NCBI GenBank assembly: GCA_021786945.1
Contig: JAJYMK010000001.1
Span: 794-64,793 of the forward strand
From: a bacterium
GTDB taxonomy: Bacteria; Patescibacteriota; Minisyncoccia; UBA6257; 02-FULL-45-10c
Reading direction: 5' to 3'
Length of the DNA: 64,000 nt
Shown: piece after piece, positions 1 to 44,830 of the stretch
Position numbering within the stretch: the first letter of the stretch is position 1
Layout: every line of letters starts with the position of its first letter
Program-made: the position numbers and the translations under genes
Notes under the pieces: model-generated
What the model was told of the DNA's origin: nothing
The model's database searches: none
What the model saw: the letters and a program-made list of their open reading frames with translations, nothing else

Positions 1-878
1 ACAAAGTAATCATCCATCCATTTCCTATAAGATGCAATAACTGGTTTTCCGCAGGCCATGGCATCTAAGATAGTCATTTGTCCACTACAATCAGAACCGT
101 CAAAATAAAAATCTTCATTTCTAGACGGAACAATTACTAACCTAGCGCCTTGATATAATTTACGAATAGTTAAATAATCCAAATTATAAAAAATCTCTAT
201 ATTTTTAGGCAAGTCAATAATATTGTTTATATTCCTTTTAGAGCAAACAATTTTTACCTTGATATCGCTTCCCTTAAAAGCTTCTATTAATGTTTTGTAA
301 TCTCTTCCGTTATCTCTACCCACGCTTAAAATATAATCACCATTTTCATGTGTTGGATAAAAAAAATTTTTATCCGTTCCAAAACAAACAACCGATAATT
401 TATTTTCTGGTATACCGATAGATATTAAAAATTTTTTTTGCCAAGTAGATAAACAAATAATTTTATAAGAAAACTTATTTAAAATCCAAGAAATAAATTT
501 TTGTTTACCCCTACTAGATCTTTTTAATAAATTTGTTAGATGTATATTAAAAACAATCCATTTATTATTAGGCCGACCAAACAAACCCTTAAAAAACAAA
601 AGGTTGAGAGCAACCGAAGAAAATATGTAATCGTATTTAAAAATTTTAAAAAAATATAATAAAAAAACCTGATTAAATCCAAATAACTTTCTAAATATTT
701 GCTCAAATTTAAAAGAAAAATCATTGCTAATATCAGCCACATCAGCTTTAAAATTATTATTTTTAATATAATTAAATCCAAATAAAGCAGTATCCGGAAC
801 GATACCTCTTAAATATTCTTTAAAATAAGCTATTCTATTAGCGCCGGCATAGATAAAAACAATTTTCTTATTATTCAT
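1..878 (-). CDS. Glycosyltransferase family 1 (GT4), 5'-partial (gene continues beyond the window start). Start codon ATG at 878-876.
   Basis: I translated the minus frame from ATG at 878 by hand. It is open to position 1 and ends with ...SDCSGQMTILDAMACGKPVIASYRKWMDDYFV, the GT4 C-terminal nucleotide-sugar-binding motif (E..DAMA.G.PVIAS). The track ORF 536..781 is in a different, spurious frame. Partial ORFs are not listed by the track. Confidence 0.8.
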   Translation of the reverse strand, partial: MNNKKIVFIYAGANRIAYFKEYLRGIVPDTALFGFNYIKNNNFKADVADISNDFSFKFEQIFRKLFGFNQVFLLYFFKIFKYDYIFSSVALNLLFFKGLFGRPNNKWIVFNIHLTNLLKRSSRGKQKFISWILNKFSYKIICLSTWQKKFLISIGIPENKLSVVCFGTDKNFFYPTHENGDYILSVGRDNGRDYKTLIEAFKGSDIKVKIVCSKRNINNIIDLPKNIEIFYNLDYLTIRKLYQGARLVIVPSRNEDFYFDGSDCSGQMTILDAMACGKPVIASYRKWMDDYF

Positions 879-2666: not shown

Positions 2667-3288
2667 TTATTAACATTTGTCCGGCAAAAGGCTTAAATGG
2701 CGAACCGATATACATTCTTACCATAAACGGTAAAATGGGCAAAAACGATGGCCTAGAATTCATAGAAAATGGCAAAAATTTTGGCATTTCATGTATTATT
2801 TTAAAATTATAATTTAACAACGTTTCTTTTAAAGATACATCATCAAATATTTTTTTATGAGTATGATCATCAAAATATTTTTTTGCCGAATAGCGATAAT
2901 TTGGCTGTATTAAAATCAAAACACCATCATTCTTTAGAACTCTTCTTATTTCATTTAAAGTCTTTATAATTTCTTGATCAGTAAAATGCTCCAATAAATT
3001 ACTAGCATGAACTACATCAATTGATTCGTTTTTTATTAAACCAAGATTCCACGCTGGAGCATTTATCATTTCAACATCTTTTGCGGCGTACTTTGGTAAT
3101 TCCGGAGAAATATCAACGGCGTATTTTTTACTGGCCTTAAAATTATTTATAAAATTACAATATCCAGCACCCAAATCTACAACGGATGATTTATTCGTAA
3201 TAAACTTATTTAAATAATTGACTATTTCTTTCCATACAATATTTCTGGATGAATCAAAAATATATCTTGATTGATAATATGAATCCAT
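2647..3288 (-). CDS. Class I SAM-dependent methyltransferase
   Basis: SAM-binding motif I VVDLGAGYCNF (cf. VLDLGCGxG) and motif post-I. 213 aa. Confidence 0.7.
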   Translation of the reverse strand: MDSYYQSRYIFDSSRNIVWKEIVNYLNKFITNKSSVVDLGAGYCNFINNFKASKKYAVDISPELPKYAAKDVEMINAPAWNLGLIKNESIDVVHASNLLEHFTDQEIIKTLNEIRRVLKNDGVLILIQPNYRYSAKKYFDDHTHKKIFDDVSLKETLLNYNFKIIHEMPKFLPFSMNSRPSFLPILPFMVRMYIGSPFKPFAGQMLIIAKKNE

Positions 3289-4043: not shown

Positions 4044-5099
4044 CTATTTGAACAAATTCTTAACTAATTTATTCAAGCTATGCTTATTTATAACAATGTC
4101 TCTAAGCTTCTTATTAGGCACCTCTCTCTCTTTTATATTTAGAGATAATATATTTTTTAATTGAAAAGCTATGTTTTTATCACTTTCTCTTTCCAAAACA
4201 AATTCTTTATCAATTTCATCATTTAGACTTTTATTAGCAACCAAAACCAAAGACTCACAAGCCATGGCTTCAAATATGGTTTTATCCATACTCCCGCTAG
4301 GGGTTAAATTAACATAAAGTTCGTATTTATTATACAAATCAACAGCTTCTTCGTGTTTAACAGAACCAATAAACTCAACTTTATTTTCTAAATTATATTC
4401 TTTAACTTTTAATTTTAGGCCCTCATAATATCCAATATCTTTAGGAAGCGGATCGCCAACAATGAGAGCTTTAAAAGTTATACCATCTTTATCTAATAAA
4501 TTTAAAGCTTTAATAAACAAATCCGGCTTTTTTATCGGAGAAATTCTGCCTAAAAATAAAATAGAATTTGGTGTTTTCTTGATTTCCGGCTTCCTTCTAA
4601 AAAAATCTGTATCTATACCTACTGGCATAATCTCGGTTTTCTTAAATCTTGCCGTATAAGAATATTTTGAAGTGCAAAAAACTCTATCGGAAACCCAAAC
4701 CGCAAAATTAGTCAAAAAAGATCCGTAGGGATGGTTTCTCCATAACATTATTTTTTTACCTAATAATTTCCATAATTTCCAACCCAAAAGCGCATACTCC
4801 TGATTCATATGCACAAAAACGGCATCATAATTTTTCCTTTCCTGCCAAATATATTTATAGAATCTATATACAAATAAAAACTTGCTAAAAATATGCGAAT
4901 AATACGAATGGCTACGAATATATTCTTCTTTACCAAGAGACAAAACCGTAACATTGGATGGCAAACTATATTCCCCCTTTTCTAAGCAAACAACCGTCAC
5001 TTTTTCGCAGTTTTTAGAAAACTCTTCCGTCCACCTATGAAAGAAGCCAAGAATTGGATCGTTTATGTCTATTTTCTGCGTTACTATTAATAATTTCAT
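4044..5099 (-). CDS. GT4 glycosyltransferase
   Basis: C-terminal FEAMACESLVLVANKS motif (E..EAMA....V). 351 aa. Confidence 0.75.
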   Translation of the reverse strand: MKLLIVTQKIDINDPILGFFHRWTEEFSKNCEKVTVVCLEKGEYSLPSNVTVLSLGKEEYIRSHSYYSHIFSKFLFVYRFYKYIWQERKNYDAVFVHMNQEYALLGWKLWKLLGKKIMLWRNHPYGSFLTNFAVWVSDRVFCTSKYSYTARFKKTEIMPVGIDTDFFRRKPEIKKTPNSILFLGRISPIKKPDLFIKALNLLDKDGITFKALIVGDPLPKDIGYYEGLKLKVKEYNLENKVEFIGSVKHEEAVDLYNKYELYVNLTPSGSMDKTIFEAMACESLVLVANKSLNDEIDKEFVLERESDKNIAFQLKNILSLNIKEREVPNKKLRDIVINKHSLNKLVKNLFK

Positions 5100-5147
5100 G
5101 TATATGATACTAATCTACAAATTTTATAAGAGTGCTACGAATAAAAA

Positions 5148-6011
5148 TTATCTTAATTTAATCTTTTTGCCGTAAACACCCATTAATAAATCTAAATCTT
5201 TTTTGGATTTTATCAATAATTCAATATTTTTCCGTTCAATAGCCGAAAGAACCGTAATTCCGGCTTTGTCTTTTTTCATTTCTTTTTTATAAAGCCTGGT
5301 TAAAGCAGCAAAATCTTTTATAAAGCAATGCCCTCCACCCCCGCGGCCATTTTTATGAACCGGATTTACATGCATTGGGCCAATCCATGGATCCACAACT
5401 ATTAAATCGCCTAAAACTTTCCAATCTGCACCTATTTTTTGAGATAAATCATACAAAATATTCATAAAAACAACTTTTGAATAAAAGAAACAATTTCGGG
5501 CATATTTAAAAAGCTCGGCTTCCCTAGCCATGCAAATTTTCTCGGAATTACTCTTTGGTAAAATATCTAAAACCATTTTAGCTTTGGCGCGATAAATAGC
5601 ACTATTAATCGGAATGCCGATTATATTATGATGCGGGGACGCAACATCTTTAGCGGCAGTAGCCTCAGTTAAAAATTCCGGGGAATGCATAACAAAAATA
5701 TCCGGATTTTCTTTTTGTAATTTTTCTGTCGAACCGGGAATTATAGTTGATTTAATAACGGCAATCTTACCACTTCCAACTAATTTAATAACCTTTTTTA
5801 CAATACCCAAATTAAATCCCTTGGAAGTTGTTGGAGTTGGAACGGCAATAAAAACAATATCGCAATTTTTTATTTTTTCTTTGTTTCCAATATATGGCTC
5901 TTCCTGAGAGTAACGGACAACATTAAAACCCCTCCTTTCAAAGTCGTCAGCATAATTTTTGCCAATCCAACCCTGGCCAATAAAACCTATTTTTAAATTA
6001 TTTTTTATCAT
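5148..6011 (-). CDS. UDP-glucose/GDP-mannose dehydrogenase family protein, C-terminally truncated (lacks the UDP-sugar-binding domain).
   Basis: Rossmann GFIGQGWIG. SPEFLTEATAAKD matches NPEFLREGTAIKD of UGDH. Catalytic-Cys motif GGGGHCFIKDFAAL matches GGSCFPKD. The protein ends about 60 aa after the Cys motif (287 aa versus about 390-440 aa for UGDH). Confidence 0.65.
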   Translation of the reverse strand: MIKNNLKIGFIGQGWIGKNYADDFERRGFNVVRYSQEEPYIGNKEKIKNCDIVFIAVPTPTTSKGFNLGIVKKVIKLVGSGKIAVIKSTIIPGSTEKLQKENPDIFVMHSPEFLTEATAAKDVASPHHNIIGIPINSAIYRAKAKMVLDILPKSNSEKICMAREAELFKYARNCFFYSKVVFMNILYDLSQKIGADWKVLGDLIVVDPWIGPMHVNPVHKNGRGGGGHCFIKDFAALTRLYKKEMKKDKAGITVLSAIERKNIELLIKSKKDLDLLMGVYGKKIKLR

Positions 6012-6012
6012 T

Positions 6013-7125
6013 TTAAATAATTTGTTTATATAACTTCAAATACCTTTCCTTGGTCATTAAATTTTCAGATACTTTAATACTATTTTTACTAAAATAGACC
6101 AATTCCTCTGTATTGGACATCAAAAAATCGACCTCCCTGATCATCGCAGATTCATCTCCCACAGGAACAACGATTCCGTTTTCTTTGTTTTTTAAAACCT
6201 CCCCAGCCAAACCAACGTCTGTCGTGACAACCGGCAATCCCGCCGCCATAGCCTCAATGACCGTTCTACCATAGCCCTCATAATTTGAAGTTAATAAAAA
6301 TAAATCAGCTGTTTTGTAATAAGATACCAAATCATCGGACCAGCCCTCAAAAACAACACTATTATTAATTTTTAAGCGTAAAACTAAATATTTAAGTCTA
6401 GCCTCCTCAGAACCAGAACCAACTATTATCAATCCAAGCTTTGGATGCTTCTTAACTAATTCCGACATCGCTTCTATAGCTAAGCCAATATTTTTTTCCT
6501 TTGTAATTCGCGAAGACATTAAAATTATAAAATTGAATTGCGGATACTTCTTATGAAGATCTGTTTTAATTGGGGCTGTTTTAATCACTTCAACATCTAC
6601 AAAAATAGGAAGCACTATAATTCTATTTAAAATTGAAGGTTTAAAATTAGAAATTAATGAGTGCTTGATTCGTTCCGAAACTACCCGAATTTTATCAGCG
6701 CGAGGAATTATAAATTTAGCCAACGAAACCCTAAATTTATTTAAAAAGGACTCTTGCCAAAAATATGGACTCAAAAAATCCGTATGGATCTGAATTTGAA
6801 GCGATAAATTATATATTTTTTTAAGCATCCACCCTGCTAAGCCCGCCTCGAAAGGATCTTGAGAAGAAATAACAATGTCTTTATTTAAAATTATTGATTT
6901 TGAAATTTTATATATACCCCAAAGATAAAATAATTTACAAAAATGATTCGTAGGATATACAAAAATATTTTCCCCTATTTTTGTCTTTTGATTTTTTAAT
7001 TTTTTACCGGAAAAAACTATTACATGGATTTCTTGAAATAATTTTCCATAATCCAAATATCGGTTCCATACGTCGGAACCCTCTTTAAACAAATTTCTAT
7101 CAGAGCCAATAACTAATAATTTCAT
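6013..7125 (-). CDS. GT4 glycosyltransferase
   Basis: EGYGRTVIEAMAAGLPVVTTDVGLAGEV motif. 370 aa. Confidence 0.8.
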   Translation of the reverse strand: MKLLVIGSDRNLFKEGSDVWNRYLDYGKLFQEIHVIVFSGKKLKNQKTKIGENIFVYPTNHFCKLFYLWGIYKISKSIILNKDIVISSQDPFEAGLAGWMLKKIYNLSLQIQIHTDFLSPYFWQESFLNKFRVSLAKFIIPRADKIRVVSERIKHSLISNFKPSILNRIIVLPIFVDVEVIKTAPIKTDLHKKYPQFNFIILMSSRITKEKNIGLAIEAMSELVKKHPKLGLIIVGSGSEEARLKYLVLRLKINNSVVFEGWSDDLVSYYKTADLFLLTSNYEGYGRTVIEAMAAGLPVVTTDVGLAGEVLKNKENGIVVPVGDESAMIREVDFLMSNTEELVYFSKNSIKVSENLMTKERYLKLYKQII

Positions 7126-26086: not shown

Positions 26087-26101
26087 CCCCCGCACCTAAT
26101 T
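26087..26101. repeat. Left terminal inverted repeat CCCCCGCACCTAATT of a GIY-YIG mini-cassette.
   Basis: Reverse complement of the right copy at 26369-26383 (AATTAGGTGAGGGGG), 14/15 match. Overlaps the GIY-YIG stop and the ctpA start region. Confidence 0.6.
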
Positions 26102-26368: not shown

Positions 26369-26383
26369 AATTAGGTGAGGGGG
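26369..26383. repeat. Right terminal inverted repeat AATTAGGTGAGGGGG of the GIY-YIG mini-cassette.
   Basis: See the left copy. GC-rich 15-mer in an AT-rich intergenic spacer. Confidence 0.6.
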
Positions 26384-30450: not shown

Positions 30451-30525
30451 GGTCCTATCGTCTAATGGCTAGGACATGTCCCTTTCACGGACAAAATACG
30501 GGTTCGATTCCCGTTGGGACTACCA
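30451..30525 (+). tRNA. tRNA-Glu (anticodon UUC), CCA encoded.
   Basis: Hand-folded cloverleaf: acceptor GGTCCTA/TGGGACT, D-arm GTCT-AATGGCTA-GGAC, anticodon stem TGTCC/GGACA with loop CTTTCAC, T-arm ACGGG-TTCGATT-CCCGT, then A-CCA. Confidence 0.85.
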
Positions 30526-30639
30526 AGAATTATTTCCATTAAAAGCGTTCAGGCGTTGATTTTTTATTCACGTGATATTAGGCTTCAGAAAGGACTTTAA
30601 TAAAAAAATAATTAGCAGAATGGGTTCTAAGGAGGAATA

Positions 30640-31146
30640 ATGCTCAAAACATCAATTAGCAATGCTTTATGGGGACTTATAACCATTGTATTCGGGTTAC
30701 TAATAGCAATTTTAGCCATCTCGGTAAAAAGCGCGGCCATTATGCTTCTTGCCGCATTTTTTGCCGGCACTAGCTTGCTACTCTTTGCTTTGTCCGTAAT
30801 CGAACTGGCAAATCATGAAAAAATTGTAGGTAAATATTTCCTTAAAAAATATTCAAGGGAAAGGAGGTTGGCAACTATCTCCAAAGCTGTTTGGCTTTGC
30901 AGAATAGACGACTACCCTGAATGGTGGAAGTCTCAAAAAGACCAAAATCTCGAAAGCGACCATGTAAGTTTTGGTGTTCTTGTCGCTATTCTCGGAGGAG
31001 TCATTGAGAAAGATGATGTGATTAAATATGGCAATCATCTGGAAAGCTGCCAAATATGCCAACATTATTATAAATCATGGATTCCGCTTATTTCCCGCAA
31101 AATAAAAAAACGGGAAAAGACAATAAAACAAAGCGGCCCTTTTTAA
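30640..31146 (+). CDS. Membrane protein with C-terminal Cys/His cluster, hypothetical. Canonical SD (AAGGAGG) 6 nt upstream.
   Basis: 168 aa. Two TM helices. C-terminal HLESCQICQHYY. Followed by a strong terminator. Confidence 0.45.
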   Translation: MLKTSISNALWGLITIVFGLLIAILAISVKSAAIMLLAAFFAGTSLLLFALSVIELANHEKIVGKYFLKKYSRERRLATISKAVWLCRIDDYPEWWKSQKDQNLESDHVSFGVLVAILGGVIEKDDVIKYGNHLESCQICQHYYKSWIPLISRKIKKREKTIKQSGPF

Positions 31147-31162
31147 GGGCCGCTTTTTTATT
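31131..31162 (+). terminator. Rho-independent terminator AAGCGGCCC-TTTTTA-AGGGCCGCTT + TTTTTTATTT.
   Basis: Perfect GC-rich stem then T-run. Confidence 0.8.
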
Positions 31163-31197
31163 TGGCTAATTTTATTTTAATTTATTAAAATAAATAT

Positions 31198-33573
31198 ATG
31201 ACTATACAAATTATTTCCGGTCTAACTTCGGCCGAGGCAGAAAACAGAATAAAAAAATACGGACTAAATGACGTCGAAGAAAAAAGAACCGGGGTAGTAA
31301 AAAAATTTTTAGCCCCGCTCTACTCCCCTATATCTCTAATGTTGCTTGGAGCAGCGCTGCTTTCACGTCTAAGTAACAGAATTTTTGATGCATATTTTAT
31401 TTTAGCTTTATACTTTGTAAATTATTCGGTTCAAAGATGGCAAGAATTTAAGGCCGATAAAGCATTGGAACAAATAAGACAAAAATTGTCTTTTGATGTT
31501 TCGACTTTCCGTGATAATAAATGGTCACCGATAAACGCTAAATATCTGGTTCCCGGAGACAGAATAAGGCTTGGTTTGGGAAGCATAATTCCAGCCGATG
31601 CTACCGTGACTGCATCAAAAAACCTTTCAACAAACGAAGCGGTTCTTACGGGAGAATCATTGCCTAAAGAAAAAAAGATTGGGGATAAAATTTTTTCCGG
31701 ATCTTTTATAGCAACCGGCAATTTGGAAGCTGAGGTGGTGGCCACCGGAAAAAATACTTTTTTCGGTAAAACGATTTTTTCAATTGAAGCTCCAAAACAA
31801 AAAAGCATACTCGAAAAAGACATTCTTACAATAACCAGATTTCTTACTCTTATAAGTTTAGGCGCAGTTGCTATTCTCACGTTTGCCTTACTGATTAAAG
31901 GTTTTGGGATAAAAGACCTTCTCACTCTCGATTTAAGCCTTATAATAGCCGGAATTCCGATAGCATTGCCGGCGGTTATGGCAATTATTCTGAGTATCGG
32001 AGCCGCAGGACTAGCAAAAAAATTAGTGGTTGTAAGAAGACTCTCAGCGCTTCAAGATCTTGCCAATGTAAATATGCTTCTAACCGATAAAACCGGCACA
32101 CTTACTAAGAACAAAATAAGTATTGAGAACATAATTTCATATCAAAACGAATTATCTACTGAAAATATTGTAGAGCTGGCCCGTCTTGCAACGCTCGATG
32201 AAACTCCGGACGCAATAGATTTAGCTATAATTAAAAAATTTGAAGAGATAAAAGGCTCTACCGAAAATGCGGAAATATTAAATTTTATACCCTATGATTC
32301 GGAAAGAAAAAGATCGACGGTTCTTATTCAAAAAGGACAAGAAAAAATTCTAATAAGCATGGGTGCGCCGCAAATCATTCAGGCATTTGATGAATTTCCT
32401 TCCCCGGAATTAAAACAAAAATTTGAAAACGACATAAATGATGCGGCGGCAAAAGGTTTTAGGGTTCTGGCGGTGGCCATAAATAAAAAAAATGCTGAGG
32501 AAAAAAATATGACTATGGCCGGAATTTTATTTTTGGCTGATCCGCTGGATGAAGACTCTAAAGAAGTTATAAAGTTTTTGAAAGAAAACGGAATCGGAGT
32601 CAAAATGCTTACCGGAGACAACGAAATAATTACAAAAAGGATTTCAACAGAACTCGATCTTCCGGGAAAAATACTATCAGTAAAAGAAACGAGGGATTCA
32701 TACAATAAACCCGAAAGTGCCTTAGAGGAAATGAAGGACGCCGCGGCTTTTGCCGAAATTTTACCGAAAGATAAATATGAAATTGTTAAAATTTTTAAAT
32801 CAAAATATATAGTCGCTGCAACCGGTGATGGTATAAATGATCTACCGGCATTAAAAATTGCGAATGTCGGCATAGCTGTTTCGGGTGCTGTTACTGCCCT
32901 GAAAAGTTTAGCCGATATAGTATTACTCGGCCAAGGCCTTTCTGTAATTAAAGACGCCATTATTGAATCAAGAAAAATATTCGTGCGTCTCTATAATTAT
33001 TCAATCTATAGAATATCCGAAAGTTTCAGATTAATAATAACTATCTTGGTGCTGGGAATTATGTATGGATCTTATCCTCTCCAGCCACTGCAATTGATTT
33101 TATTGGCATTTTTAAACGATGTTCCAATTATCTCACTTGCATTTGATAGGGTTAAAATTTCTTCGGAACCGGCCAGAATAAAGACAAGAGAAAGATTTTC
33201 ATTGAGTCTTTTATTCGGATTTGTCGGCATATTGAACAGCATCTGCTTATTTGTTCTGACACTAAACATTCTTCATTTTCCGATTGAAATAATCCAAACT
33301 ATGTTTTTCTTGAAACTAACCATTTCCGGACACGCACTTATTTTTGTGGCCCATACCAAAGAAAGATGGTACAAATTCTTGCCCAGTAAGGAAGTTATTA
33401 TGGCTACTATCGGCACGCAAATAATAGCTACCGGGCTAGCCGTATCCGGCTATTTAATGCCAAGTAAAATATCATGGCCAATGGCTCTCTTTGTGTGGGT
33501 TTGGGCCTTGATATGGATGCAAATAACCGAACTAACAAAAGATCTTCAGGAAAAATTTGTAAAAAAAGATTAA
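31198..33573 (+). CDS. P-type cation-transporting ATPase (P2/P3-type: 10-TM plan with PMA/MgtA/Ca-ATPase-like N-terminus).
   Basis: Canonical DKTGTLT (LLTDKTGTLTKNK), TGDN (MLTGDNEIIT), GDGxND (ATGDGINDLPALKIANVGIAV). N-terminal EAENRIKKYGLND resembles the N-terminus of P-type ATPases of the H+/Mg2+/Ca2+ groups. Confidence 0.9.
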   Translation: MTIQIISGLTSAEAENRIKKYGLNDVEEKRTGVVKKFLAPLYSPISLMLLGAALLSRLSNRIFDAYFILALYFVNYSVQRWQEFKADKALEQIRQKLSFDVSTFRDNKWSPINAKYLVPGDRIRLGLGSIIPADATVTASKNLSTNEAVLTGESLPKEKKIGDKIFSGSFIATGNLEAEVVATGKNTFFGKTIFSIEAPKQKSILEKDILTITRFLTLISLGAVAILTFALLIKGFGIKDLLTLDLSLIIAGIPIALPAVMAIILSIGAAGLAKKLVVVRRLSALQDLANVNMLLTDKTGTLTKNKISIENIISYQNELSTENIVELARLATLDETPDAIDLAIIKKFEEIKGSTENAEILNFIPYDSERKRSTVLIQKGQEKILISMGAPQIIQAFDEFPSPELKQKFENDINDAAAKGFRVLAVAINKKNAEEKNMTMAGILFLADPLDEDSKEVIKFLKENGIGVKMLTGDNEIITKRISTELDLPGKILSVKETRDSYNKPESALEEMKDAAAFAEILPKDKYEIVKIFKSKYIVAATGDGINDLPALKIANVGIAVSGAVTALKSLADIVLLGQGLSVIKDAIIESRKIFVRLYNYSIYRISESFRLIITILVLGIMYGSYPLQPLQLILLAFLNDVPIISLAFDRVKISSEPARIKTRERFSLSLLFGFVGILNSICLFVLTLNILHFPIEIIQTMFFLKLTISGHALIFVAHTKERWYKFLPSKEVIMATIGTQIIATGLAVSGYLMPSKISWPMALFVWVWALIWMQITELTKDLQEKFVKKD

Positions 33574-33639
33574 TTTTTTAAAAAAACCGGTTTGCATAAC
33601 CGGTTTTAAATTGATAGAATTATTTAAAATAAATAAAAA

Positions 33640-33860
33640 GGCGTCGACGCTGCCAACACAGCTGAGCCGGGAGAAGAAAAGTCTGCCGTCGTTAAAACTT
33701 TGGCAAGACACAGTAAACCTCCCCGGGTTTGCCCGTTATAGCTTAATGAGGTTTAGCTAAAAACTAAACAAAGTAAGGTGGCACCGCATTAAATATAAAT
33801 TGAATGCCCTTACAAAGTTATCAAACAGTCGTTGATAATTTTGTAGGGGCATTTTTATTC
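33640..33860 (+). promoter_or_regulatory. T-box riboswitch leader (candidate Asp specifier GAC) controlling aspS by transcription attenuation.
   Basis: T-box sequence AAGTAAGGTGGCACCGCATT (33766-33785) matches the consensus AAnnnGGGTGGnACCGCG. The bulge UGGC is complementary to the GCCA 3' end expected of tRNA-Asp (G73). GACA (Asp codon plus purine) at 33708-33711 lies in the putative Stem I return strand. An intrinsic terminator ATGCCCTTACAAA...TTTGTAGGGGCAT + TTTTTATT lies at 33803-33858, immediately before aspS. Confidence 0.65.
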
Positions 33861-33861
33861 C

Positions 33862-33887
33862 CACACTTAATTAATTAAGTGTGGGAC
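33862..33887. repeat. Perfect 26-bp palindrome CCCACACTTAATT|AATTAAGTGTGGG between the T-box terminator and the aspS start.
   Basis: Read directly. Each arm is 13 nt with no spacer. It sits in the 24 nt preceding the aspS ATG region. Confidence 0.7.
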
Positions 33888-33911
33888 AAATAAAAAAATA
33901 AAAATAAAAAA

Positions 33912-35318
33912 ATGCAAAGAACATATATAAAAGAATTAAAAAATAAAGTTGGGGAAGAAGTCAGTATTTCCTGCTGGGTGGATATAAGACGCGATCACGG
34001 AAAATTAATATTCGTGGATTTGCGCGATATGTCCGGCAAAGTCCAAGCCGTAGCGCTTCCCAACCACAAAGAAGCTGTGGCTGTAGCAAGCACCATAAGA
34101 CCAGAGTGGGTTGTAGAAGTAACCGGCAAAGTGAATCCTCGTCCAGAAAAACTCGTTAATAAAAATGAAGAAAATGGCGCAATTGAATTGGAAATAATTT
34201 CCATAAACGTACTGAATGAAGCGCTTACACCACCTCTTGACCCTCGTGGAGACGGCCGGGAAATAGATGAAGAAGTCAGACTAAAATACCGCTACTTAGA
34301 CTTGCGCAGGCCAAGAATGCAAAAAAATATAAGAAATAGACACAAAGTTTTGAAATTCGTAAGAGACTTCCTTGATAAAGAAGGATTTATTGAAATAGAA
34401 ACACCAAACCTTACCAAATCAACTCCGGAAGGATCTAGGGATTACATTGTCCCCTCCAGACTTGAACAGGGAAAATTCTACGCTCTTCCGCAATCTCCTC
34501 AGCAATACAAACAACTTCTGATGGCCGCCGGAATGGAAAAATATTTCCAGGTAGCCAGGTGTTTCAGAGATGAGGATACCCGCGGAGACAGACAGCCGGA
34601 ATTTACCCAACTTGATATGGAAATGAGTTTCCCAACACAAGAGGAAATAATTCAGCTCAATGAAAAAATGATGATTGAGCTGGTTAAAACCATTTATCCG
34701 GAAAAAGAAATCCAGCAAATTCCATTTCCACGCCTTACCTATAAAGAAGCGATGGAAAAATATAATTCCGATAAACCGGATTTACGAAAAGACAAAAACA
34801 ATCCGAATCTCTTAGCTTTTTGCTGGGTAGTTGATTTTCCGATGTTTGAAAAAACCGATGACGGAAAATGGACATTCACCCACAACCCATTCTCGGCAGC
34901 GCAGCCACAGCACATAGAAGATCTGATGGAAAAGAAAAATATAGAAAACATTCTGGCTGCCCAATACGATATCGCTCTTAACGGCTGCGAAATTGGCGGC
35001 GGCAGCATCCGAAATCACAAACCTGAAGCTCTCAAAAAAGTATTCCAGATTATGGGCTATGAAGACGAAAGAATTGAAAATAATTTCGGCCATATGTTGA
35101 AAGCTTTTGAAATGGGCACACCCCCTCATGGCGGAATTGCCTGGGGTATAGACCGTCTTATTATGTTTTTGGAAAATGAGCCAAATATCCGCGAAGTAAT
35201 TGCTTTTGCCAAAACCGGTGAAGGAAAAGACTTAATGATGGATTCGCCGTCGGAAGTTTCCACCGAACAGCTCAAAGAGCTCGGCATTAAAATAGATAAG
35301 CCAGAAAAAAAGAAATAA
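33912..35318 (+). CDS. aspS: Aspartate--tRNA ligase, short form lacking the bacterial GAD insertion domain.
   Basis: N-terminal OB anticodon-binding domain. Class II motif 2 FRDEDTRGDRQPEFTQLDMEMSF. Motif 3 GGIAWGIDRLIMF. 468 aa versus about 590 aa for the bacterial type. Confidence 0.9.
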   Translation: MQRTYIKELKNKVGEEVSISCWVDIRRDHGKLIFVDLRDMSGKVQAVALPNHKEAVAVASTIRPEWVVEVTGKVNPRPEKLVNKNEENGAIELEIISINVLNEALTPPLDPRGDGREIDEEVRLKYRYLDLRRPRMQKNIRNRHKVLKFVRDFLDKEGFIEIETPNLTKSTPEGSRDYIVPSRLEQGKFYALPQSPQQYKQLLMAAGMEKYFQVARCFRDEDTRGDRQPEFTQLDMEMSFPTQEEIIQLNEKMMIELVKTIYPEKEIQQIPFPRLTYKEAMEKYNSDKPDLRKDKNNPNLLAFCWVVDFPMFEKTDDGKWTFTHNPFSAAQPQHIEDLMEKKNIENILAAQYDIALNGCEIGGGSIRNHKPEALKKVFQIMGYEDERIENNFGHMLKAFEMGTPPHGGIAWGIDRLIMFLENEPNIREVIAFAKTGEGKDLMMDSPSEVSTEQLKELGIKIDKPEKKK

Positions 35319-35319
35319 A

Positions 35320-36360
35320 ATGCCGGATAAAAAAACCAAAATAATTTTATCTATAGAAACCAGCTGTGACGAAACCGCCATCGCTGTATTGAAATGCTCC
35401 GGAAACATAAAAAAACCGATTTTTAAAATTATCGCCAATGAAGTTTCTTCACAAATAAAAATACATAGGCCTTTCGGCGGAGTTGTTCCCAACCTGGCAA
35501 AACGCGAACACATAAAAAATCTTCCGAAGATTTACCAAAAAATAAAAAAAGAAGTTGTTGGGCTAGAAAGGAAAATTGATCTGGTAAGTGTAACAGTAGG
35601 GCCGGGATTGGAACCGGCGCTTTGGACAGGAATCACTTTTGCCCAAGATTTGGCGCAAAAAATAAAAAAGCCATTAATAGGAGCCAATCATATGGAAGGG
35701 CACCTCTTCGGTTTTTTACTTTCGGAGCAGGAAAATAAATTAGATTTTCCGGCTATCGGACTGGTGGTGAGCGGCGGACACACCGTTCTTCTGAAAATGA
35801 CCAGTCTGACCAAATGGGAAAAACTAGGAGAAACAGTCGACGATGCCGTCGGCGAAGCTTTTGATAAAGTCGCCAGAATTCTGGATCTTCCCTACCCCGG
35901 CGGACCGGAAATTGAGAGACTCGCCCTGAGCCTGCCGAAGGGAGAAAAACCATCTATAAACTTTCCCAGACCAATGCTGAATCAACACAACTACGACTTC
36001 AGTTTTTCCGGATTAAAAACTTCGGTGCTTTATTATTTGCGAGACAACCCCAAAACCAATAAAGCCAATATTGCCGCTTCTTTTCAGCAAGCCGCAATAG
36101 ACGTATTAACTAAAAAAGCCATGAAAGCCGCTGAAGAATTTTCCGCCAAATCAATAATTCTCTGTGGGGGTGTAGCCTGCAATAAAACACTGCGTGAAAC
36201 AATCAGAAAAGAATCCGAAAAAAGAGGTTTAAGTTTTTTTGCCCCGGAAATGAAATTTAATACCGATAATGCCGCTATGATAGGCGCAGCTACATATATT
36301 CATATCCTGGCCAAGAAAAAATCACTTAAAATTGAAGCTGATTCAACTTTGAATCTATAA
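35320..36360 (+). CDS. tsaD: tRNA N6-adenosine threonylcarbamoyltransferase TsaD (Kae1/OSGEP family).
   Basis: LSIETSCDETAIAV (metal-binding). GVACNKTLR. ASKHA fold length 346 aa. Confidence 0.9.
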   Translation: MPDKKTKIILSIETSCDETAIAVLKCSGNIKKPIFKIIANEVSSQIKIHRPFGGVVPNLAKREHIKNLPKIYQKIKKEVVGLERKIDLVSVTVGPGLEPALWTGITFAQDLAQKIKKPLIGANHMEGHLFGFLLSEQENKLDFPAIGLVVSGGHTVLLKMTSLTKWEKLGETVDDAVGEAFDKVARILDLPYPGGPEIERLALSLPKGEKPSINFPRPMLNQHNYDFSFSGLKTSVLYYLRDNPKTNKANIAASFQQAAIDVLTKKAMKAAEEFSAKSIILCGGVACNKTLRETIRKESEKRGLSFFAPEMKFNTDNAAMIGAATYIHILAKKKSLKIEADSTLNL

Positions 36361-39878: not shown

Positions 39879-39890
39879 ATCCAACCAAAC

Positions 39891-39922
39891 AACCCCCTCT
39901 TTAAAGAGGGGGTTGTTTTTTA
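39891..39922 (+). terminator. Rho-independent terminator AACCCCCTCTTT-AAA-GAGGGGGTT + GTTTTTTAATTTT.
   Basis: Perfect 9-bp G/C stem then T-run. Confidence 0.8.
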
Positions 39923-43073: not shown

Positions 43074-43136
43074 CCCCTCACCTATTTTTTATATTTACCA
43101 CCTAATTTTTTTGCTTTAAATAATTAGGTGCGGGGA
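43074..43136. repeat. Solo inverted-repeat pair (CCCCTCACCTATTT ... AATTAGGTGCGGGGA) in the infB 5' leader. Same IR family as the GIY-YIG cassette ends, enclosing only about 35 nt.
   Basis: 43074-43088 cccctcacctatttt and 43122-43136 aattaggtgcgggga. An internal 9-bp hairpin cacctaatt/aattaggtg sits at 43099-43130. Confidence 0.55.
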
Positions 43137-43220: not shown

Positions 43221-43310
43221 GGAGGCGTGGCTGAGCGGTCGAAAGCAGCACACTGCTAATGTGTTGAGGGGGAAACCCCTCCGAAGGTTCGAATCCTTCC
43301 GCCTCCGCCA
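43221..43310 (+). tRNA. tRNA-Ser (anticodon GCU), class II, CCA encoded. Integration site of the downstream element.
   Basis: Acceptor GGAGGCG/CGCCTCC, D-arm GCT-GAGCGGTCGAA-AGC, anticodon stem GCACA/TGTGT with loop CTGCTAA, variable stem GAGGGG-GAAA-CCCCTC, T-arm GAAGG-TTCGAAT-CCTTC, then G-CCA. Confidence 0.9.
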
Positions 43311-44830
43311 GATTTCCAACTTTGAACCGTAGAAACTGCAAGGGTTTTCGAGCCCTTTGATGGTTTCGGTGGTTCGAGTTTGGAGACTTGCAAATCCATA
43401 AGAACATCAAAGACTGGCGTCCATATCGGCGTCAGTTTTTGATTACTGACAGTGAACCCCTCAAAACAAAGCTTCATCAATGTGCGTTTTTGATGCATTG
43501 AGCTGGTATTGAACACCTTGTCGGCATGATCCGTGAAGTCCAGTAATTCATTAAATTTCTGCACGAATTTGTCAGACTTGCCCTCAAGCACCCCTAAGCG
43601 GTCCTGATACATTTCCTTCTCCTTTAAAAGCTCGTCCTGAATCTTTATAAAGACATCGGCGTCAATAATACGCTGGGAACGATCCACAACGATATTGCGA
43701 ATTTGTTGCTGAACTCTTATAAGCTCACGCTTGAGACTCTTGCGTTCTTTGTCCTCCTGCTCAAGCCTTTCTTTGGCAAAATATTGAAAGTAAGAATCAA
43801 GCACCTTCTTAAACTTATCAGGTAGATGAACCCGTGATAAATGGTTTGCGACCTGTTCCTCAACGACCTCCCATCTCATGTATTTGCGTTCAGTGCAGTT
43901 TTTGTCCTGCCAGTGAGTGCATGAATAGTAAAGATGACCTTTCTGCATCTGTCCGCAGAGTGTAGACCCACACACTGCACATCTCATAAACCCTGCCATA
44001 GGATACGAATGCTTGCGAGTACGATCGGCGTAATGATTGTGCTGTTGGACTACTTCCTGAACATCATCAAAAAGCTTCTTTGAGATCAAAGGCGGAAAAT
44101 TTGCCTGACAAGTGGCTGATCGAGTTTTTATAAGACCGTAGTAAATTGGATTGCAAAGAAAATGCTCAATTGATTTGCGATTAACATGTTTGCCGGATTT
44201 GCTTTTGAGACCTCGCTTATTAAGTTCGGCCGACAGAGAGTCGTATGAATACTTGCCGGTGGCGTAGAGTTCAAAAGCCAGTTTTATATATGGGGCCCGA
44301 ATGTTATCGATAATAAGAGATTTAGTCTTTTTATCGTTTGTGTACCCAATTGGTGCGTATCCAGGGAATCTGCCACGCTCTACGGCCTCTTTAAGACCTT
44401 TCCTGACCTCCCAGCTGATGTTTTGAGATGTCCACTGGGCAATGGAAGCCATGATGTTCTCAACCAGCTCTCCAGAAAAAGACTCATCGAACTGCTCGAC
44501 TACTGAGACAAGTTTGGCATCATGCTTTTTAAGCATCATCTTAATGGCGGCGTAGTCGGCCACATTACGGCACATACGATCAAGCTTGTGGACTAAGATG
44601 ACATCAACCTTACTATCAGTTTTTGCTCGATGAAGCATTTTCTGAAGCTGTGGACGATCAGTCGTTCTAGCTGATTCGCCCTTTTCCTCATAGATACCAT
44701 CTGGGAGTAAATTCCAGTGATGATCCATTCCGTATTTTTGGCACGCTTTGACTTGTGCCGGAATACTCAATTCTCGTTCGGCCTGACGAGAGGTGGAAAC
44801 ACGGCCGTAGATTAAATAATTTGTACTCAT
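43256..44830 (-). CDS. Large serine recombinase (integrase). The C-terminal about 18 codons are encoded by the complement of the tRNA-Ser 3' half.
   Basis: N-terminal resolvase catalytic domain with YGRVSTSRQ (Ser nucleophile). Recombinase domain. Zinc ribbon CAVCGSTLCG...CTHWQDKNC. Coiled-coil. 524 aa. Confidence 0.85.
   Translation of the reverse strand: MSTNYLIYGRVSTSRQAERELSIPAQVKACQKYGMDHHWNLLPDGIYEEKGESARTTDRPQLQKMLHRAKTDSKVDVILVHKLDRMCRNVADYAAIKMMLKKHDAKLVSVVEQFDESFSGELVENIMASIAQWTSQNISWEVRKGLKEAVERGRFPGYAPIGYTNDKKTKSLIIDNIRAPYIKLAFELYATGKYSYDSLSAELNKRGLKSKSGKHVNRKSIEHFLCNPIYYGLIKTRSATCQANFPPLISKKLFDDVQEVVQQHNHYADRTRKHSYPMAGFMRCAVCGSTLCGQMQKGHLYYSCTHWQDKNCTERKYMRWEVVEEQVANHLSRVHLPDKFKKVLDSYFQYFAKERLEQEDKERKSLKRELIRVQQQIRNIVVDRSQRIIDADVFIKIQDELLKEKEMYQDRLGVLEGKSDKFVQKFNELLDFTDHADKVFNTSSMHQKRTLMKLCFEGFTVSNQKLTPIWTPVFDVLMDLQVSKLEPPKPSKGSKTLAVSTVQSWKSGGGGRIRTFGGVSPSTH

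Follow-up and report, generated by a model that had tools for sequence, protein, structure and literature searches.

An ultrashort-Stem I, terminator-type T-box riboswitch, probably responsive to tRNA-Asn, upstream of aspS in a Patescibacteria genome

The DNA analysed here, referred to as the window, is a stretch of 64,000 nucleotides from a genome of the Patescibacteriota (GenBank assembly GCA_021786945.1, contig JAJYMK010000001.1, positions 794 to 64,793 of the forward strand). One of its loci comprises, in this order, a gene for a P-type ATPase, a T-box leader, the aspartyl-tRNA synthetase (AspRS) gene aspS, tsaD and valS. The element before aspS is a real T-box riboswitch, acting by transcription attenuation and reduced in architecture, and the sole T-box in the window. 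The encoded AspRS is of bacterial type (468 aa; 594 bits against NCBIfam aspS_bact) and, since the 590-aa profile is matched in two stretches, devoid of the GAD insertion, in agreement with a preliminary description of this DNA that had called the gene a short form. Its homologues belong to Paceibacterota, Moranbacteria and other Patescibacteria, which places the host among the Paceibacteria/Moranbacteria-like lineages of the candidate phyla radiation (CPR). The parts of the switch and the genes it precedes are the following:

33640 to 33668, + strand: ultrashort Stem I, a 29-nt K-turn hairpin with a 6-nt apical loop, a 4-bp upper helix and a 3-bp basal stem (GGC/GCC)
33653 to 33658, + strand: specifier loop CCAACA, in which the Asn codon AAC occupies 33655-33657, followed by the conserved 3' purine A (33658)
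33669 to 33723, + strand: Stem II, with a 5-bp base (GGGAG/CUCCC) and the S-turn strands AAGAAAA (33674-33680) and AGUA (33712-33715)
33724 to 33738, + strand: Stem IIA, folded as CGGG-UUUG-CCCG, and the F-box CCGUUA (33733-33738); this part supplies the 5' side of the IIA/B pseudoknot and is aligned by Rfam to IIA with high posterior
33751 to 33769, + strand: Stem III (GUUUAG/CUAAAC), with a 7-nt loop and purine-rich flanks
33773 to 33813, + strand: antiterminator, with helix A1 (GUAAGG 33773-33778, CCUUAC 33808-33813), helix A2 (GCAUU 33786-33790, AAUGC 33803-33807) and the bulge UGGCACC (33779-33785)
33804 to 33859, + strand: intrinsic terminator, a 21-bp hairpin (33804-33852, predicted free energy -28.1 kcal/mol) followed by the U-tract UUUUUAUU (33852-33859)
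33912 to 35318, + strand: aspS, encoding the 468-aa AspRS without GAD insertion domain, the gene under T-box control
35320 to 36360, + strand: tsaD, encoding a subunit of the t6A transferase

As tsaD starts 2 nt past the aspS stop codon, the two genes are probably co-transcribed, in which case tsaD is also controlled by the T-box.

The T-box sequence had been recognised in the preliminary description and is confirmed, with the core AAGGUGGCACCGC at 33775-33788 enclosing the 7-nt bulge. The search with the Rfam T-box family RF00230 recommended there returned a match at 33635-33814 on the + strand with 58 bits, significant both in a 421-nt region (E = 3.2e-12) and in the whole window searched with all 4227 families (E = 4.9e-10), but lying under the gathering score of 93. 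At the gathering threshold, the Rfam scan of the window reports tRNAs only and no T-box, and the match appears when E-value thresholds are applied. The low score is accounted for by the lack of nearly the whole of Stem I: a consecutive run of 74 model positions belonging to Stem I is deleted from the Rfam alignment, in which the K-turn, the S-turn of Stem II, IIA, Stem III and the T-box remain with high posterior probabilities. The leader region also folds more stably than its shuffled versions (z = -7.5). Further Rfam matches in the region (trpB motif, snoRNAs, miRNAs) were dismissed as low-scoring matches to the hairpins of the terminator and of a palindrome described below.

Related leaders were sought in 170 CPR aspS loci, gathered from reference genomes, metagenomes and exact-protein look-ups, a leader being detected by the T-box core motif or by a match to a covariance model built from the leaders. 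The preliminary description had proposed looking for the same leader before aspS in related genomes, and it was found in 32 of the 170 loci, corresponding to 29 non-redundant leaders including that of the window, in every case 5' of aspS and on its strand. When RF00230 was applied to ten relatives, eight scored between 36 and 58 bits and two were not found at E <= 0.001; because such scores fall short of the gathering score, default annotation misses this class of leaders systematically. The short-Stem-I model of TBDB has been applied only to Actinobacteria or to matches already found by Rfam (PMC7778990), and none of the papers searched mentions T-box riboswitches together with Patescibacteria, candidate phyla radiation or Parcubacteria.

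The preliminary description had implied the canonical architecture with a long Stem I and had suggested checking its fold. The K-turn hairpin is indeed present, with a 3-nt bulge (GUC) and tandem G-A pairs (33646-47 and 33664-65) at positions that are invariant or at least 90% conserved, whereas the distal platform (interdigitated double T-loop motif, IDTM) is absent and the stem is limited to 29 nt. In an alignment of 20 leaders, 89.4% of the Stem I cells are paired, against no more than 40.6% in slid controls; six of the eight pairs have changed on both sides, and the observed score was reached by none of 500 shuffles. The whole aptamer, evaluated on a 15-sequence alignment, is 90.3% paired (at most 48.5% in slid controls). 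Of its 34 pairs, 23 have both partners changed, and compensatory changes are seen in Stem I, the base of Stem II, IIA, Stem III, A1 and A2. Both-side changes affect all five pairs of the Stem II base helix (96% of cells paired), three of the four pairs of Stem IIA and, among the leaders that have Stem III, four of its six pairs, while A1 and A2 are paired at 100% and 92%, respectively, in 15 leaders. The IIA/B pseudoknot, judged by eye, covaries in the relatives (CUGC:GCAG, CCUG:CAGG, CCGC:GCGG).

The regulatory half of the leader is equally constant. The succession of A1, UGGNACC bulge and A2 recurs in 28 of 28 folded leaders, all of which carry a terminator of 16-23 bp (approximately -20 to -34 kcal/mol) with a U-rich tail and a 5' arm starting 2-6 nt before the 3' strand of A1. 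In the window, the 5' arm begins 4 nt before that strand and contains the 3' strands of both A2 and A1, so that terminator and antiterminator are mutually exclusive, providing the alternative pairing on which the preliminary description had made its proposal depend. The strong terminator claimed there is likewise borne out, except for its supposed position directly in front of aspS: between the U-tract and the ATG lie 52 nt, palindrome included, the corresponding distance being about 24-40 nt in the relatives. The expression platform is a transcription terminator and not a sequestrator of the ribosome-binding site: a U-tract follows the helix, 52 nt away from the start codon in the window, and neither the window nor the relatives have a Shine-Dalgarno sequence at a functional distance within the alternative helix.

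An attenuating T-box before aspS, as first proposed, is therefore backed by the Rfam match, the 32 related loci, covariation in all helices and the competition between antiterminator and terminator. The possibility was considered that the leader is instead a relic, decaying or non-functional, or only serves, constitutively, to attenuate or terminate transcription of the upstream ATPase gene, an idea to which its sporadic occurrence, its loss in a relative with 92% AspRS identity, the missing elbow-binding platform and the sub-threshold Rfam score lend some colour. This is highly improbable, since all the helices keep their pairing through compensatory changes and the K-turn, the S-turn, the F-box, the 7-nt bulge and the codon-plus-purine are conserved across lineages sharing only about 55-75% AspRS identity. 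Moreover, the ATPase gene has a hairpin of its own (33585-33605), and the leader has its own promoter-like site:

33591 to 33620, + strand: sigma-70-like promoter, TTTGCA and TAGAAT with an 18-nt spacer containing TG, a consensus match only

Transcription is predicted to start at about 33627-33630, 10-13 nt 5' of Stem I, and because the promoter-like site ends 19 nt before Stem I there is no room for a further 5' RNA element. Among 25 related leaders, 14 have a comparable site (TTGCAx-16..19-TAnnnT) at 7-19 nt 5' of Stem I.

Some relatives are smaller still. The IIA/B pseudoknot and Stem III have essential roles in published structures. In six minimal variants (L003, L091, L093, L103, L125 and L170), both are absent and a purine-rich linker of about 17 nt joins Stem II to A1, so that aptamer and antiterminator together span about 109-114 nt (e.g., L093, 1052-1160; L170, 2347-2460).

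Concerning specificity, the preliminary description had read the element as a canonical T-box sensing tRNA-Asp by means of a GACA specifier at 33707-33710. The tetranucleotide is present, the downstream gene is aspS, and UGGC suits the G73 of tRNA-Asp. However, within the hairpin assigned by Rfam to Stem II, whose S-turn has GAA on its 5' side and AGUA on its 3' side, GACA falls on the 3' side of the distal part and belongs to a lineage-specific extension (about 33681-33711). It cannot be the specifier, because this segment is deleted in L167 and L084, the closest two relatives bearing a T-box (95% and 91% AspRS identity, respectively), both of which conserve the rest of the switch in full. 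The covarying K-turn hairpin with its conserved codon-plus-purine loop is found at 33640-33668 instead. At the level of comparative sequence, the tRNA-Asp/GACA model is already refuted, and it is almost certainly incorrect.

Across the 29 non-redundant leaders, the apical loop of Stem I conforms to N-N-(G/A)-A-C-A: positions 1-2 vary freely (CC, AC, CU, CA, AA, AU), position 3 is only G or A, and positions 4-6 are invariant in the 20-leader alignment. As specifier codon, 14 leaders have GAC (Asp) and the other 15, that of the window among them, have AAC (Asn); no further codon occurs among the 29. As GAC matches aspS in about half of the family, the reading register of the loop is fixed, and the loop CCAACA of the window therefore reads AAC, an Asn codon, followed by the conserved purine. 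The Asp specifier initially claimed does not hold for the window or its clade, where the conserved position reads Asn, GAC being confined to other lineages. On the AspRS tree, the leaders with AAC, that of the window among them, group in a deep clade reaching down to about 70% AspRS identity, and at least three switches between GAC and AAC are counted, taking into account L143 outside the AAC clade and L109, with GAC, inside it. The fixation of AAC over this clade, while loop positions 1-2 drift, indicates that AAC itself is kept by selection. The element, its structure, the position of its specifier, the restriction to GAC and AAC and the mutually exclusive terminator are all computational observations.

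It was also considered whether the AAC loop might sense tRNA-Asp (anticodon GUC), an A-C mismatch being tolerated at codon position 1; all the members would then be Asp sensors and the AspRS need not be non-discriminating. GAC and AAC are one transition apart and have interconverted repeatedly, and the Stem II contacts that stabilise the codon-anticodon helix in T-boxes with a short Stem I might buffer a mismatch (PMC7583486). On the other hand, three consecutive Watson-Crick pairs between specifier and anticodon occur in all known T-box varieties (PMC7583486), with a strict preference for canonical specifier pairing (PMC7778990). Within the AAC clade, drift has produced no reversion bar L109, and no third codon was ever seen, although several others lie one change away from GAC. 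The chance that the mismatch account is right is accordingly small. The codons GAC and AAC are those of the two tRNA substrates of a non-discriminating AspRS, which favours an Asn-sensing switch in the window; the family would appear to have moved solely between the codons of the two tRNAs charged by such an enzyme.

Taken together, the leader is probably an Asn-sensing T-box, with an ultrashort Stem I and a terminator, that drives aspS-tsaD. The nascent transcript would begin a few nucleotides before 33640 and fold into the K-turn hairpin, presenting AAC and the following A in its apical loop; this hairpin would dock on the S-turn of Stem II as well as on the IIA/B pseudoknot, with no distal platform to hold the tRNA elbow, and the anticodon GUU of tRNA-Asn would pair with AAC. 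An uncharged tRNA could also pair through its 3' GCCA end with the bulge UGGC and stabilise the antiterminator, allowing read-through into aspS-tsaD; with an aminoacylated one, carrying either Asp or Asn, the antiterminator would not be stabilised, the 21-bp terminator would form and transcription would stop. Presumably, tRNA is bound, this tRNA is tRNA-Asn, its charge is sensed and the AspRS is non-discriminating. GAC fits aspS directly, whereas an Asn specifier fits the regulated gene only if the AspRS is non-discriminating. An Asn sensor on aspS would make physiological sense under that condition, because the enzyme would then make the Asp-tRNA-Asn that is supplied to GatCAB and the switch would gauge the very step catalysed by AspRS. 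The indirect route of Asn-tRNA formation is that of most bacteria (PMC8406222).

The pairing of UGGC with a tRNA end GCCA, part of the initial proposal, is plausible: the single CPR tRNA-Asp recovered from the 170 loci encodes G73-CCA, and the fourth base of the bulge is C or U among close relatives, either of which pairs with G73. No tRNA-Asn gene was present in the 170 loci. The bulge UGGU occurs in six of 15 AAC leaders and in none of 14 GAC leaders; its confinement to AAC leaders could be due to shared ancestry or to differing acceptor ends of the two tRNAs.

Several points weigh against an Asn-sensing switch of this kind. The RF00230 gathering score is not reached. The relative L168, whose AspRS is 92% identical, has no leader, and with such a sporadic distribution the leader is dispensable. 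No asnS, gatA or gatB was found among the window ORFs (open reading frames) of 380-550 aa, and a literature search on CPR with GatCAB or AsnRS returned nothing usable. The complementarity to the anticodon and discriminator base of tRNA-Asn is assumed from the general features of bacterial tRNA-Asn. Finally, transcriptional T-boxes are held to need an elbow-binding platform for fast tRNA capture (PMC7583486), and a terminator-type T-box deprived of it might work poorly or require a slow or paused polymerase.

With regard to the surrounding genes, the adjacency of aspS and tsaD was found in three of eight AAC loci, in none of 12 GAC loci and in two of 109 T-box-free loci. Since it is confined to the immediate clade of the window, a general functional tie between the Asn T-box and tsaD, conceivable because t6A is found on ANN-reading tRNAs, was rejected. 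No Shine-Dalgarno-like sequence precedes the aspS ATG in the 26 nt from 33886 to 33911, which are almost pure A with a few T, and the same is seen in L084. In L168, a tRNA-Glu gene lies directly 5' of aspS (at about 2900-3000), without a T-box, and the same tRNA-Glu is located 3.4 kb 5' of aspS in the window, where a 168-aa ORF, the P-type H+-ATPase (region 30451-33573) and the T-box intervene. Remodelling of the region 5' of aspS has taken place among close relatives.

In the relatives, the ORFs lying between the T-box and aspS encode unrelated small proteins. One of about 50 aa, with two CxxC pairs (MAIKPxCxxC...KYHLCxxCY), is placed between terminator and aspS in L103 (1735-1884), L106 (2291-2446) and L114 (1126-1284); the three loci are unrelated, the ORF is conserved in them, and its position would put it under the same control as aspS. 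In L170, two genes 3' of the aspS controlled by an AAC T-box, a 668-aa protein (5023-7029, + strand) joins an N-terminal half similar to glutamyl-tRNA reductase to a catalytic core resembling the archaeal type of AspRS/AsnRS; it lacks an anticodon-binding domain, and all its matches are under the family cut-offs.

The spacer between the terminator and aspS holds a further feature, reported and left unexplained in the preliminary description:

33860 to 33885, no strand assigned: perfect 26-bp palindrome CCCACACTTAATT/AATTAAGTGTGGG, flanked by the U-tract of the terminator and by the A-rich stretch that precedes the ATG

It was rightly left so. The palindrome is not a conserved part of the riboswitch. 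It occurs once in the window (0 expected by chance), where no inverted repeat is longer, and it recurs identically in two independent samples, L081 and L082, whose AspRS is identical. It is absent from L084, in which the U-tract passes directly into the A-rich region before the start codon, from L167 and from all the remaining leaders. Its role as an intrinsic terminator was rejected: the flanks are ACAAAUAAAAAAA on the + strand and AAUAAAAAUG on the - strand, with no U-tract, and the terminator scan omits it.

A functional second control, either as a protein operator on the DNA or as a stabilising or processing hairpin in the read-through mRNA, is suggested by the perfect dyad, with its G+C-rich ends and A+T-rich centre, by its identity in the two other samples and by the different G+C-rich hairpin that L167 has at this position. 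Nevertheless, such a role is doubtful, given that even the 91% and 95% relatives lack the palindrome, that neither a second copy nor a clear half-site family was found in the 64 kb (7 weak matches against 2.3 expected), that no regulator gene or promoter-like site adjoins it and that a neutral or selfish small insertion into an insertion-prone spacer would fit equally well. On comparative grounds, the palindrome is best described as a recent, lineage-specific insertion in that spacer, outside the conserved switch. Searches of viral contigs gave no matches to it.

The hairpin of L167 (at about 230-400) reads UCCACCA-AC-UGGUGGA and is accompanied by about 130 nt of extra sequence before aspS; its arms resemble the T-box GGUGG core and its complement. 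Half-site-like sequences with 2 mismatches, CCCGCACCTAATT twice and CCCTCACCTAATT once, were noted near gene starts of the window at 26089-26101 (+), 43122-43134 (-) and 26369-26381 (-), probably by chance. A second perfect palindrome of the window, of 32 nt (39887-39918; AAACAACCCCCTCTTTA / TAAAGAGGGGGTTGTTT), may be a bidirectional terminator. Elsewhere in the window, an ORF for a 524-aa large serine recombinase (CcrB/XisF-like; 43256-44830, - strand) overlaps the 3' part of tRNA-Ser(GCU) (43221-43310, + strand), an arrangement that suggests an integrated mobile element at this tRNA gene.

The interest of the switch resides in the combination of a short Stem I with a terminator, which is considered atypical, in its occurrence in the CPR and in the alternation of Asp and Asn specifiers. 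On balance, we lean towards the view that CPR/Patescibacteria carry an unannotated class of T-boxes, with an ultrashort Stem I devoid of the elbow platform and a terminator, placed on the AspRS gene and equipped solely with Asp or Asn specifiers that have been switched repeatedly, as a natural readout of an AspRS serving both tRNAs, and that some members are reduced to about 110 nt without IIA/B and Stem III. T-boxes are a model system for the recognition of one structured RNA by another. In current structural and kinetic models, transcriptional T-boxes have a long Stem I and depend on its elbow-binding platform for catching the tRNA before the polymerase passes, whereas the translational ones have a short Stem I and are under no time limit.

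A natural family joining a short Stem I to a terminator tests this division directly and, if real, would contradict the working rule by which a co-transcriptional T-box requires the platform to capture tRNA quickly. In these bacteria, which grow slowly and have small genomes, either the polymerase would allow more time or the Stem II contacts would suffice. The members of about 110 nt would be the most minimal T-boxes known and could serve as compact parts for engineered tRNA sensors. The class would bring tRNA-sensing regulation to a lineage thought to have very little regulatory RNA, where default Rfam thresholds have missed it. The Asp/Asn toggle could serve, in uncultured organisms, as a marker, readable from sequence alone, of the tRNA that is limiting for AspRS function and hence of the indirect Asn-tRNA pathway.

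Among the known systems, an Asn specifier before an AspRS gene has a precedent in Clostridium acetobutylicum, for which Saad et al. reportedly described a 'two-codon T-box' in PNAS in 2013. Its Stem I is said to be of the long Firmicute type. According to the passages of PMC4206432 and PMC4574755 that cite Saad et al. 2012 (JBC), an Asn T-box controls aspS2-gatCAB in this species, the element has dual specificity, and the organism possesses three AspRSs and extra copies of GatCAB. So far as those passages go, the two systems share an AAC specifier before an AspRS gene and a logic by which uncharged tRNA-Asn raises the maker of Asp-tRNA-Asn. The switch of the window differs in its ultrashort Stem I, in an aspS without paralogue in the 64-kb window and in gatCAB not being part of the aspS operon.

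In architecture, the closest counterparts are the ileS T-boxes of Actinobacteria, whose 'ultrashort' Stem I was reportedly described by Sherwood, Grundy and Henkin in 2015. The basal K-turn of a very short Stem I, the codon followed by a purine in the apical loop, the absence of IDTM/elbow platform, the Stem II S-turn (GAA/AGUA here), the IIA/B pseudoknot with its F-box, the antiterminator-type discriminator and the 7-nt bulge are common to both. The ileS elements of Nocardia farcinica (codon A16-U17-C18, purine A19) and Mycobacterium tuberculosis are represented by the structures PDB 6UFM and 6UFG (PMC7583486). When 33640 is numbered as nt 1, the spacing in the window is identical to that of N. 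farcinica, with the codon at nt 16-18, the purine at nt 19 and the S-turn adenines at nt 38-39, and codon position 3 is likewise C, the base preferred by that structure (PMC7583486). The two groups differ in phylum (Actinobacteria against CPR/Patescibacteria), in gene (ileS against aspS) and in specifier (Ile against Asn or Asp), and some CPR relatives additionally lack IIA/B and Stem III. Above all, the actinobacterial T-boxes are translational, with a Shine-Dalgarno sequestrator, whereas the family of the window ends in a terminator with a U-tract in every leader folded.

With the canonical transcriptional T-boxes (RF00230; e.g., Bacillus subtilis tyrS and glyQS), the element shares the T-box sequence, the UGGN-NCCA pairing, the competition between antiterminator and terminator, the K-turn, the Stem II/IIA-B/III layout, the position before an aminoacyl-tRNA synthetase gene and the intrinsic terminator with a U-tract. 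Their Stem I measures about 90 nt against 29 nt here, and the window element is without the internal specifier loop, the AG bulge and the distal-loop platform; a long Stem I with an elbow platform is generally required in transcriptional T-boxes (PMC7583486, PMC11297988). The switch before aspS stands between the two architectures, missing one defining feature of the canonical class I and one of the ultrashort class II.

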